A DNA stretch of 62,029 nt from Thermoproteota archaeon. Its GTDB lineage: Archaea; Asgardarchaeota; Jordiarchaeia; Jordiarchaeales; Freyrarchaeaceae. The translations under genes and the position numbers were made by a program. The notes beneath the pieces were generated by a model that did no database searches, was not told the origin of the DNA, and saw only the letters and a program-made list of their open reading frames with translations. Numbering within the stretch: position 1 is the stretch's first letter; the number at the start of each line of letters is the position of its first letter. The stretch covers positions 1-62,029 of the forward strand of contig JAPDJY010000019.1 of assembly GCA_029258835.1 (NCBI GenBank), in the 5' to 3' direction. Below are positions 11,611-13,702 of this stretch, in pieces.

Positions 11611-12322
11611 GTGATCGCTATGTCTATCTATTTTTTGGTCTGCATTGCAGGCATGATAGTGACGATCCCATTCCACTTCCTATCGCTTGAACACGTGAAG
11701 CTCCAAGAGAAATACGGGAGGGAAAGGGGGATCAGGATCGGGGAAACCATAGGGATGGTTCAGGGATGGCTGTTCTACATCTTCTGGATGGGCATCTGGC
11801 TCTCGCCTCAACCCCGCTTCATGCTTCCAAGGCCAAACCTGTCAGTCACGATCCCCATCATCAATTTCACCATCCCGATTCTCCACGTGGCGGCATCATC
11901 CCCTTCGTAGCCTTCGGCGCATGGCTTGGAATCAAGGGGTGCAGGTCGTAACTTTAAAAGTAGCTGAAAGGCACAGGACGGAGAGAATAGTTACAGACGG
12001 CGTCTACTCGATAGTAAGGCACCCCCAATATCTCGGAGGCCTCCTATCCCACATAGGAATATCCATCCTCCTGTCCGCATGGTACTCCATCCTCTCCACC
12101 CCCCTAATAATCGCAATAACCTACCTATACTCGTGGAAGGAGGAAAAGGAGCTGATCAGGGAATTCGGAGAAGAGTACGAGGAGTACAGGAGGAAGGTTC
12201 CGATGTTCATACCGAGACCAAGAAGAAAACCCGGCAGGGTTGAAGGAGGGCGTCAAGGCAGCCTAGGGGAGGAAGAGAAGCGGATCAAACAGGAAGCGAA
12301 GGCGCTAGGAAGCAGCAGATGA
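11611..12322 (+). pseudogene. Isoprenylcysteine carboxyl methyltransferase (ICMT/PEMT) family membrane protein with two frameshifts (about 11895 and 11940)
   Basis: IVTDGVYSIVRHPQYLG and EEKELIREFGEEYEEYRRKVPMFIP motifs; coding sequence split over three frames. Confidence 0.85.
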
Positions 12323-12362
12323 ATGCTTAAAGCCACAGACAACAACCAGCTAGGCTTGAGGT

Positions 12363-12379
12363 TAAAAGTAATTTTATAA
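12363..12379 (+). promoter_or_regulatory. BRE/TATA promoter of tRNA-Sec
   Basis: Purine-rich TAAAAG followed by TTTTATAA (12372-12379), about 28 nt before the tRNA 5' end. Confidence 0.7.
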
Positions 12380-12406
12380 GCTCCCTCTAAAATGTTAAAG
12401 TCGAGT

Positions 12407-12558
12407 GGCGGGCTGCAGCGGGGGTGGAAGCCGTAGCTGCCCAGTCCCCTGCCTCGGACTTCAAACACTCCCTGACTGAAGGGGGGAAATCCGAGGAACC
12501 CGGTAAGGGTTCGGGGTTCGATACCCCTCATGGGCGGAAATCCCCCAGCCCGCCGCCA
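12407..12558 (+). tRNA. selC: tRNA-Sec (UCA) with three introns: 12428-12444, 12465-12488 and 12523-12540
   Basis: Spliced 93-nt product GGCGGGCUG CA GCGGGGG UGGU CCCCUGC CUCGGA CU UCA AA UCCGAG GAACCC GGUAA GGGUUC GGGG UUCGAUU CCCC CAGCCCGCC G CCA. It has a 9-bp acceptor, 4-bp T stem, 7-bp D stem, 6-bp anticodon stem, long variable arm, G73 and encoded CCA. Confidence 0.93.
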
Positions 12559-12721
12559 AACCATAAAACGGGAATCCGGAAGAGTCCAGCCGCTTCTTCG
12601 GATGCACGCCTCCTCCCAGCTCTTAACCTCAGCCTTCATCGACGCCGGCTTAAAGCCCTAAGCCGCCTCTGACCCTTGCACCGACATCCTTATCTTCTTT
12701 CTCTCAGACTTTTGATGGGGG

Positions 12722-13702
12722 TTGCATTTGGACGTCGAGTCCCTAGCTTCAGCTGTCAGGAGTTTTAAGGGCGTTAACCGTAAAAGGGAGATTCACAGGG
12801 TTACCTCTCTTCTAAAGGAAACCCTCGACCTGTCCGGCGTTGCCGTGCGCTCCTTCGGGGAGGACGCAGCAGTCCTGGACGTCGGATGGGAAAACTACCT
12901 CTTAGTGGCTGTTGACAGCATGTGGCACCTTCTCCTAGACTCTGACCCATTCTTCGCAGGCTACTGCTCGGTCCTCGTCAACGTCAACGACGTGGTTGCT
13001 AAAGGCGGAACTCCTATAGCTCTCTTAGACTCTTTAAGCGTTGCAAACTGGGATGACGCTTCCAAGGTCATTGAAGGAATGGTTTTCGGGTGCAAAAAGT
13101 TTTCTGTTCCTGTCGTCGGCGGACACCTTCACCCAGACGCTCCCGTAGCGTCGCTTTCCGTGATGGTCATAGGGACGGTTAAGAAGGAGAACATCGTGTT
13201 TAGTGACACAGCCTCCCCGGGAGATAGGATCCTGCTAGCCGTAGACTTAGATGGCCGCTTCCATGAATGGTTTCCCTATGCGTGGGATTCAACCTCGTGG
13301 AAGTCCCCTGAAGAAGTTAAGCTCAAGCTTAGCTCTATGTGGAGTGTTGCTGAAGCCGGGCTTGCAACCGCGGCGAAGGACGTGAGCAACCCAGGCATCC
13401 TCGGCACGCTTGGCATGCTCTTGGAGGCTAGCGGGGTTGGAGGAGTGGTGAACGTTGACCACATACCTAAACCATCTGACGTAAGCATGGAGAGGTGGCT
13501 TTGCTCGTACCCTGGATTTGGGGTGGTCTTAACGGCTGAGGAGGATAAGGCGGAGAGGTGCGTTGAGCTATTTGAGAGTAGGGGGGTGGCAGCATCGGTG
13601 ATAGGTGAAGTGACTTCTTCCGGGAAGCTTGTCATAGTTGATGGGGAAAGTGAGGTTGAGGTCTTCAACTTTAAATATGATAAGATTTCAGGTAAACCGT
13701 GA
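12722..13702 (+). CDS. AIR synthase/PurM-fold protein, methanogenesis marker 2-like
   Basis: SFGEDAAV, AGYCSVLVNVND, VGGHLHPD and AAKDVSNPGILGTLGMLLEAS motifs. Confidence 0.85.
   Translation: MHLDVESLASAVRSFKGVNRKREIHRVTSLLKETLDLSGVAVRSFGEDAAVLDVGWENYLLVAVDSMWHLLLDSDPFFAGYCSVLVNVNDVVAKGGTPIALLDSLSVANWDDASKVIEGMVFGCKKFSVPVVGGHLHPDAPVASLSVMVIGTVKKENIVFSDTASPGDRILLAVDLDGRFHEWFPYAWDSTSWKSPEEVKLKLSSMWSVAEAGLATAAKDVSNPGILGTLGMLLEASGVGGVVNVDHIPKPSDVSMERWLCSYPGFGVVLTAEEDKAERCVELFESRGVAASVIGEVTSSGKLVIVDGESEVEVFNFKYDKISGKP

Follow-up and report, generated by a model that had tools for sequence, protein, structure and literature searches.

At positions 12407–12558 on the forward strand of a 62,029-nt contig of a Jordarchaeia genome (JAPDJY010000019.1 of assembly GCA_029258835.1, C13 in our numbering; this whole stretch is the window) lies what is very probably the single, working selenocysteine tRNA (tRNA-Sec) gene of that genome, split by three introns of the bulge-helix-bulge (BHB) type that would be spliced from its transcript. 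Exon 1 (12407–12427) contains the 5′ strand of the acceptor stem (12407–12415), the linker CA, the 5′ strand of the D-stem (12418–12424) and the D-loop bases UGG, and is followed by the first intron (17 nt, 12428–12444) in the D-loop. Exon 2 (12445–12464) carries the last D-loop base, the 3′ strand of the D-stem, the 5′ strand of the anticodon stem and the loop bases C-U-UCA-A, with the anticodon TCA at 12461–12463. The second intron (24 nt, 12465–12488) occupies the canonical 37/38 position. Exon 3 (12489–12522) starts with A38 and continues through the 3′ strand of the anticodon stem, the variable arm (12496–12512), the 5′ strand of the T-stem and the T-loop bases UUCGAU. The third intron (18 nt, 12523–12540) separates this UUCGAU from the final U of the T-loop. 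Exon 4 (12541–12558) supplies that last T-loop base, the 3′ strands of the T-stem and acceptor stem, G73 (12555) and an encoded CCA (12556–12558). All seven segments are on the forward strand. A candidate archaeal TATA box, TTTTATAA (12372–12379, +), which may serve as the promoter element, is located 28–35 nt 5′ of the mature end, and A/T-rich TATA-like boxes are found at a similar upstream distance in three of the orthologues described below (G002, G003 and G006).

Removal of 12428–12444, 12465–12488 and 12523–12540 leaves exons of 93 nt in total. These coordinates, the intron lengths and the size of the product had been proposed in an earlier sequence-only reading of the DNA, and are borne out by the sequence. 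ARAGORN calls the spliced 93-mer as tRNA-SeC(tca), and its minimum free energy (MFE) fold is a 9/4 cloverleaf of −59.8 kcal/mol (z = −5.7, 500 shuffles); the call and the fold confirm the proposed 9/4 tRNA-Sec with UCA, G73 and CCA. In the spliced form, a 9-bp acceptor stem with a 2-nt linker is combined with a 4-bp T-stem carrying the loop UUCGAUU. The D-arm, GCGGGGG-UGGU-CCCCUGC, has a 7-bp stem and a 4-nt loop; the D-stem of archaeal tRNA-Sec is mostly 7 bp long (PMC5330540). The anticodon arm, CUCGGA-CUUCAAA-UCCGAG, has a 6-bp stem and a 7-nt loop with UCA, and the variable arm a 6-bp stem and a 5-nt loop. No tRNA was found by ARAGORN in the unspliced gene or elsewhere in the 62-kb window. 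When the D and T inserts were removed, ARAGORN in intron mode found the 24-nt anticodon-loop intron unaided, as i(40,24).

The spliced sequence was compared with 30 intron-less Asgard tRNA-Sec genes that score above the Rfam cut-off (57–67 bits), 12 of which were displayed in detail. The UGGU, CUUCAAA and UUCGAUU loops of the spliced form are identical to those of the 12 displayed genes, and the 9-bp acceptor stem, 7-bp D-stem, G73 and CCA are common to the 93-mer and all twelve. The 4-bp T-stem is also found in those displayed genes that are closest to the 93-mer. It had been claimed that cuts behind the second bulge nucleotide regenerate the expected loops at all three introns, and the match to the intron-less genes agrees with this. 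A nhmmer profile built from the 30 genes was then searched against the whole genome and the spliced sequence. The spliced form scored 38.1 bits (E 2e-9) and the unspliced locus 17.5 bits. No other tRNA-Sec candidate was found with the profile in this 94.7%-complete genome, the next-best match having an E value of 0.11. As profile scores elsewhere reach only 13.6 bits, the locus at 12407–12558 is the sole tRNA-Sec candidate of the genome.

The BHB motifs were examined in the register that places every cut between the second and third bases of a 3-nt bulge. The D-loop intron forms the central helix GGGU/GCCC with bulges GG-A and AG-U (hyphens marking the cuts), a 3-bp intron-side helix AGC/GCU and 2 bp on the exon side. 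The sequence-only reading had described this motif as a strict BHB; the helix, bulges and AGC/GCU pairing are as claimed, and the word strict is slightly generous for an exon-side helix of 2 bp. The T-loop intron, with the central helix UUCG/CGGA, bulges AU-A and AA-U, the 3-bp intron-side helix CCC/GGG and the 4-bp T-stem on its exon side, has the pairing that had been stated, where it was likewise called strict. The 37/38 intron had been described as relaxed and indeed is: its central helix CUUC/GGGG includes two G·U pairs, and between the bulges AA-A and AA-A and the rest of the intron there is an intron-side helix of 1 bp, the exon side being the 6-bp anticodon stem. At all three introns, 4/4 central pairs form in register, with 3-nt bulges on opposite strands. 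When the intron letters were shuffled, 4/4 pairs at all three fixed borders were obtained in 9 of 100,000 trials (P 9e-5). A scan with loose BHB criteria (4 central pairs and at least 2 bp in each flank) gave many unrelated matches in this GC-rich stretch and missed the relaxed 37/38 intron; the criteria were later applied at the fixed borders only, with the shuffles as control. Because the loose scan matches many unrelated places, the BHB motif alone is weak evidence, and it is the comparative data, not the motif alone, that carry the case for three introns.

For this comparison, orthologues were taken from three genomes of the same family (G001–G003) and four of Freyarchaeia (G006–G008 and G010), and the genes of two Atabeyarchaeia (G021 and G031) were read at their published coordinates, giving 10 genomes with the present one. 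Within the family, the three inserts are at identical sites and differ in sequence and length: the D-loop intron is 16–20 nt, the 37/38 intron 12–15 nt and the T-loop intron 17–18 nt in G001–G003, whose exons are identical to those described here at 91–92 of 93 positions. In Freyarchaeia, exon identity is 85–86/93, the D-loop intron is 28 nt and the T-loop intron 32–33 nt, and the 37/38 intron is absent. In Atabeyarchaeia, the D-loop intron is 38–39 nt and the T-loop intron 25 nt; the 37/38 intron is again absent and an intron in the variable arm is present instead. The D-loop site is thus common to all 10 genomes (16–39 nt), as is the T-loop site (17–33 nt), which is also used, with a 29-nt insert, in G134, one more Asgard genome (family f9). 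After excision of the inserts, 8/8 of the Jordi- and Freyarchaeia genes yield a 93-nt tRNA-SeC in ARAGORN.

Introns in the D-loop, at 37/38 and in the T-loop occur together in each of the four genomes of the Jordarchaeum family that yielded the gene, and among the 10 genomes compared the 37/38 intron (12–24 nt) occurs only in these four. In Freyarchaeia the anticodon loop is uninterrupted, CUUCAAAUCCG; since their sequence reads through this site, the borders of the 37/38 insert are set without recourse to the motif. The 37/38 intron seems to have been added, at the level of the family, to two sites that are widely shared. A side observation concerns the same site in another Asgard genome (G146, family f9), in which a tRNA-Sec gene (C2:189880–190045, −) contains a single 24-nt intron at 37/38. 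Its central helix, CUUC/GAAG, consists entirely of Watson-Crick pairs, and the gene scores 47.1 bits, just over the Rfam cut-off. Longer Rfam matches in two other genomes, G143 and G017, were rejected as tRNA-Sec; they have a GUG anticodon and are apparently interrupted tRNA-His genes.

Base changes between genomes mostly keep the pairing, in the tRNA as well as in the splicing motifs. Between families, the acceptor stem shows G-C to A-U, and the D-stem G·U to A-U and G-C to G·U; one C/U mismatch is seen in the anticodon stem of Freyarchaeia. A fully paired 4-bp central helix is formed in 23 of 24 intron instances in the 10 genomes. The intron strand of this helix varies and still pairs, being GCCC, ACCC or GCCU at the D-loop, GGGG or GGAG at 37/38, and CGGA, CGAA, UGAA or CGAG at the T-loop, with changes that include U·G to U-A and G-C to G·U.

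The same interrupted gene was found on contigs of two other metagenome runs. Only two differences lie within the gene and both are in introns: A12435G in the loop of intron 1, and G12484A in intron 2, where a U·G pair of the central helix becomes U-A. As contigs from two independent runs contain the inserts, these are not an assembly artefact. DNA near-identical to the locus is present in sediment and hydrothermal-vent metagenomes. In one of the two runs a second, related tRNA-Sec was also noticed (compared with 12487–12524), having D- and T-loop inserts and an uninterrupted anticodon loop; this second gene indicates that a relative without the 37/38 intron is present in the same habitat.

The genome (2.72 Mb in 91 contigs, 48.8% GC, 94.7% complete) was placed in a genus of its own (g1, as opposed to g2) within the Jordarchaeum family. 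Its SepSecS, which scores 484.7 bits, shares 78% identity with the protein of Candidatus Jordarchaeum sp. LHC_1308 and 67% with the one from a Jordarchaeia metagenome-assembled genome (MAG), which marks the organism as an Asgard archaeon of this class. A PSTK-like gene is located on the same contig as SepSecS and scores 152 bits, under the curated cut-off of the model (290.5). SelD (218 bits) has a TGA at the conserved HG-U-SCK site. SelB/EFSec (TIGR00475, 296.9 bits, over the curated cut-off) is encoded in the window itself at 86–958 (−), where it is cut off by the contig start; it is 11.4 kb from the tRNA-Sec gene and on the opposite strand, an arrangement that resembles the one described for Lokiarchaeota (PMC4989117). 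SepSecS, SelD and SelB thus score above the cut-offs of their models, and the PSTK-like protein below.

The selD gene itself (contig C82, −; L014 at about 1990–2020) carries, between the codons for ...SDVY and AMGA..., an in-frame insert of 30 nt that includes a TAA stop. In it, an 8-bp hairpin, GCGTAGCC/GGCTACGC, is flanked by a 4-bp helix GUGU/GCAU with bulges ACA and AAG. The insert looks like a BHB-type intron in a protein-coding gene, and its removal would restore SDVYAMGA.

Directly 3′ of the tRNA-Sec gene, at 12722–13702 (+), an AIR-synthase-related protein (PF00586 and PF02769) is encoded. Its match to the selD model is weak (48.9 bits, under the cut-off), which makes it a relative of the PurM/HypE/ThiL type. 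Two open reading frames that overlap the tRNA gene, at 12253–12639 (−) and 12424–12672 (+), have no Pfam match and were rejected as spurious.

Genes for splicing are also found in the genome. A splicing endonuclease (EndA) of 190 aa, in which both endonuclease domains are present, most closely resembles chain 3P1Z_B of Aeropyrum pernix. PDB entries 3P1Z and 3AJV differ (H/A) at one position where this protein retains His, and its Tyr and Lys presumably form the rest of the catalytic triad, the roles of these residues being assumed from the M. jannaschii enzyme. A paralogue of 308 aa has Ala where the M. jannaschii catalytic His aligns. From this pair of a catalytic and a structural paralogue, the enzyme is probably of a two-subunit type, (alpha-beta)2. 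No EndA types other than (alpha-beta)2 and epsilon2 cut non-canonical introns (PMC5829648). The ligase RtcB is present as well (606.9 bits). In the whole genome ARAGORN reports only 25 tRNA genes, most of them with odd, non-canonical or implausible introns, a count that fits the published near-universal interruption of tRNA genes in Jordiarchaeia and Atabeyarchaeia (PMC11291895; bioRxiv 10.64898/2026.10.13.758758). The whole tRNA set seems to be heavily interrupted and largely invisible to ARAGORN.

Several observations weigh against a working gene with three BHB introns. The genome is a MAG with an estimated contamination of 6%. On the unspliced genomic gene the Rfam tRNA-Sec model (RF01852) scores 21.6 bits, as against a gathering score of 47, and aligns the middle only, namely exon 3. 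The 37/38 motif has two G·U pairs in its central helix, and its short intron-side helix is reduced to 0 bp in three orthologues. At the D-loop, the exon-side pairs number two here and one in Freyarchaeia, and a BHB shifted by one base can also form, which would give a 6-nt D-loop. The three BHBs are not seen in the unconstrained MFE structure of the precursor (−86.1 kcal/mol); with the three cores enforced the energy is −65.8 kcal/mol, about 20 kcal/mol higher. This gap is approximately the nearest-neighbour penalty for six 3-nt bulges, and because the enforced conformer lies so far above the MFE, thermodynamics alone does not predict the motif. The run search listed no RNA data set with the gene, and in two metatranscriptomes that match parts of a 1.5-kb stretch no contig extends over 12407–12558, a lack which says nothing either way about expression.

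The motif details bear on a first alternative, namely that the tRNA-Sec gene is real but that one or more inserts are removed in another register or by another route, with the D-loop cut shifted by one base or the 37/38 insert handled as a bulge-helix-loop. The shifted D-loop BHB is possible in this genome and has the better exon-side score in Freyarchaeia; the 37/38 intron-side helix is 0–1 bp in all four carrier genomes, so that the 5′ cut may lie within a loop. However, the register used here gives the UGGU D-loop that is common to the 12 displayed intron-less Asgard genes, from which a 6-nt D-loop is absent, and in the same register 4/4 D-loop central pairs are formed in all 10 genomes. 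Processing in a different register is therefore improbable.

The failure of standard models on the genomic sequence, together with the draft state of the genome in 91 contigs at 94.7% completeness, would also be expected of a decaying tRNA-Sec pseudogene whose inserts are never removed, Sec decoding having been lost or being served by a gene on unassembled DNA. A pseudogene would not, however, account for exons that are nearly invariant within the family and well conserved across families while the inserts drift, nor for the retention of BHB pairing in the inserts through substitutions. Further, Sec decoding is required by selD itself, which has TGA at its active-site position, and each of SepSecS, the PSTK-like protein, SelD and SelB was found, with only the PSTK-like protein under its cut-off. 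In complete genomes of Freyarchaeia and Atabeyarchaeia, the interrupted copy of tRNA-Sec is the only one. Decay of the gene is thus a very improbable explanation. Least probable is a chance resemblance, in which a tRNA-like sequence is carved from GC-rich intergenic DNA by three free deletions: although loose BHB criteria match many places in the stretch, this is effectively refuted by the orthologue comparison and the profile score, for the same procedure succeeds in seven further genomes whose inserts differ in sequence, the product matches the profile of real Asgard tRNA-Sec genes, and the 37/38 borders are set independently by the insert-free Freyarchaeia sequences.

A working, three-intron tRNA-Sec gene has counterparts in known systems. 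The statement, in the sequence-only reading, that intron-bearing tRNA-Sec occurs in Asgard archaea proved correct: tRNA-Sec of Lokiarchaeota is interrupted by a single intron of 31 nt in the T-loop (Mariotti et al. 2016, PMC4989117), and in 2017 this was called the only intron-bearing prokaryotic tRNA-Sec (Santesmasses et al., PMC5330540). The gene described here is like it in the 9/4 fold, the 7-bp D-stem and the non-canonical T-loop intron, and unlike it in having three introns, not one. The one-intron gene of G134, interrupted at the same site between UUCGAU and U, scores 49 bits and is still detected by Rfam.

Whether a triple-intron case had been published was left to a literature check, and such a case is already tabulated. 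A table of a 2024 study (Valentin-Alvarado et al., PMC11291895), its Supplementary Data 4, gives tRNA-SeC of Atabeyarchaeia-1 and -2 three introns and that of Freyarchaeia one, and this appears there only; the Atabeyarchaeia entries read 'SeC UCA, 3 introns (R2DT), found by Secmarker only' and are not taken up in the text of the paper. The gene of the present genome resembles those of Atabeyarchaeia-1 and -2 in having three introns, identical D-loop (after GUGG) and T-loop (after UUCGAU) sites, the 9/4 fold and an encoded CCA. Unlike here, the third Atabeyarchaeia intron is in the variable arm and the introns are longer (25–39 nt), and the organisms belong to a different class. The published table also lists the tRNA-SeC of a complete Freyarchaeia genome at 810415–810536 with one intron. 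By alignment, this gene (G006:C1:810384–810536; L026 1501–1653, −) runs 31 nt further and has introns of 28 nt in the D-loop and 32 nt in the T-loop; the published call seems to break off within the latter.

Closer to the present genome, the tRNAsec of the Jordarchaeia MAG LHC_bin_1308 was reported as found by Secmarker (Sun et al. 2021, PMC9723677, Fig. 3d), in a paper whose main text contains the word "intron" 0 times. That MAG is of the same class and probably of the same family, and differs in genus. Same-family G001–G003 have the orthologous three-intron gene, their 37/38 intron being 12–15 nt as against 24 nt here. Multi-intron tRNA genes in general are known from Thermoproteales (Sugahara 2008, as cited in PMC11291895), and a 2026 preprint has quantified the tRNA intron load in Jordiarchaeaceae, Freyrarchaeaceae and Atabeyarchaeaceae (bioRxiv 10.64898/2026.10.13.758758); tRNA-Sec is not treated in it, selenocysteine tRNAs being mentioned once, in the Methods. 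The likeness to the multi-intron tRNAs of Thermoproteales, Jordiarchaeia and Atabeyarchaeia lies in several non-canonical BHB introns per gene, of which those in the D-arm are often missed by the annotator, and the two EndA paralogues are consistent with an (alpha-beta)2 enzyme as in those lineages. Surveys of multi-intron tRNAs start from tRNAscan-SE calls, without analysis of tRNA-Sec. Each of the three intron sites has a counterpart in other Asgard tRNA-Sec genes, the D- and T-loop sites in Freyr- and Atabeyarchaeia, the T-loop site in G134 and the 37/38 site in G146. Interrupted tRNA-Sec of this kind is already on record in neighbouring lineages and is not surprising to specialists.

The observed anatomy and conservation pattern of the gene, and the genes present for all the enzymes named below except SerRS, point to a maturation pathway in which transcription, cleavage, ligation and charging would follow each other. 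Transcription would start under the TATA-like box about 30 nt upstream and give a precursor with a 152-nt body, in which each insert would fold with flanking exon bases into a BHB. The splicing endonuclease would cleave each bulge between its second and third bases, and RtcB would join the four exons into the 93-nt tRNA-Sec. The product would be charged by SerRS and converted by PSTK and SepSecS with selenophosphate from SelD, and SelB would deliver the Sec-tRNA to UGA codons.

The D- and T-loop introns occupy identical sites in Jordiarchaeaceae, Freyarchaeia and Atabeyarchaeia, with the T-loop site shared also by at least one further Asgard family (f9). On this ground, both introns of tRNA-Sec may have a common and very ancient origin and might have been retained for a function, for example maturation, and thereby Sec decoding, gated by EndA, a proposal that we regard as unlikely. 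Alternatively, they may be neutral passengers, gained repeatedly wherever a BHB forms by chance.

The understanding of Sec decoding and of tRNA splicing mechanisms is unchanged by this gene. Its main value is for annotation. The sequence-only reading had expected that standard tRNA finders would miss the gene, and they do: ARAGORN and the Rfam tRNA-Sec model give no above-threshold tRNA-Sec in this genome, and the Rfam model likewise gives none above its threshold in the genomes searched from the same family (4), from Freyarchaeia (6) and from Atabeyarchaeia (3). As interrupted tRNA-Sec is missed in this way in these Sec-using lineages, pipelines that require a tRNA-Sec call can under-call the Sec trait in them. 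There is also a minor evolutionary point, in that, of the close relatives in the comparison, a single family has the 37/38 intron while the D- and T-loop sites are spread far more widely. The gene thus offers a small example, with good alignment, on which to test intron gain versus retention in the tRNA genes of Asgard archaea.

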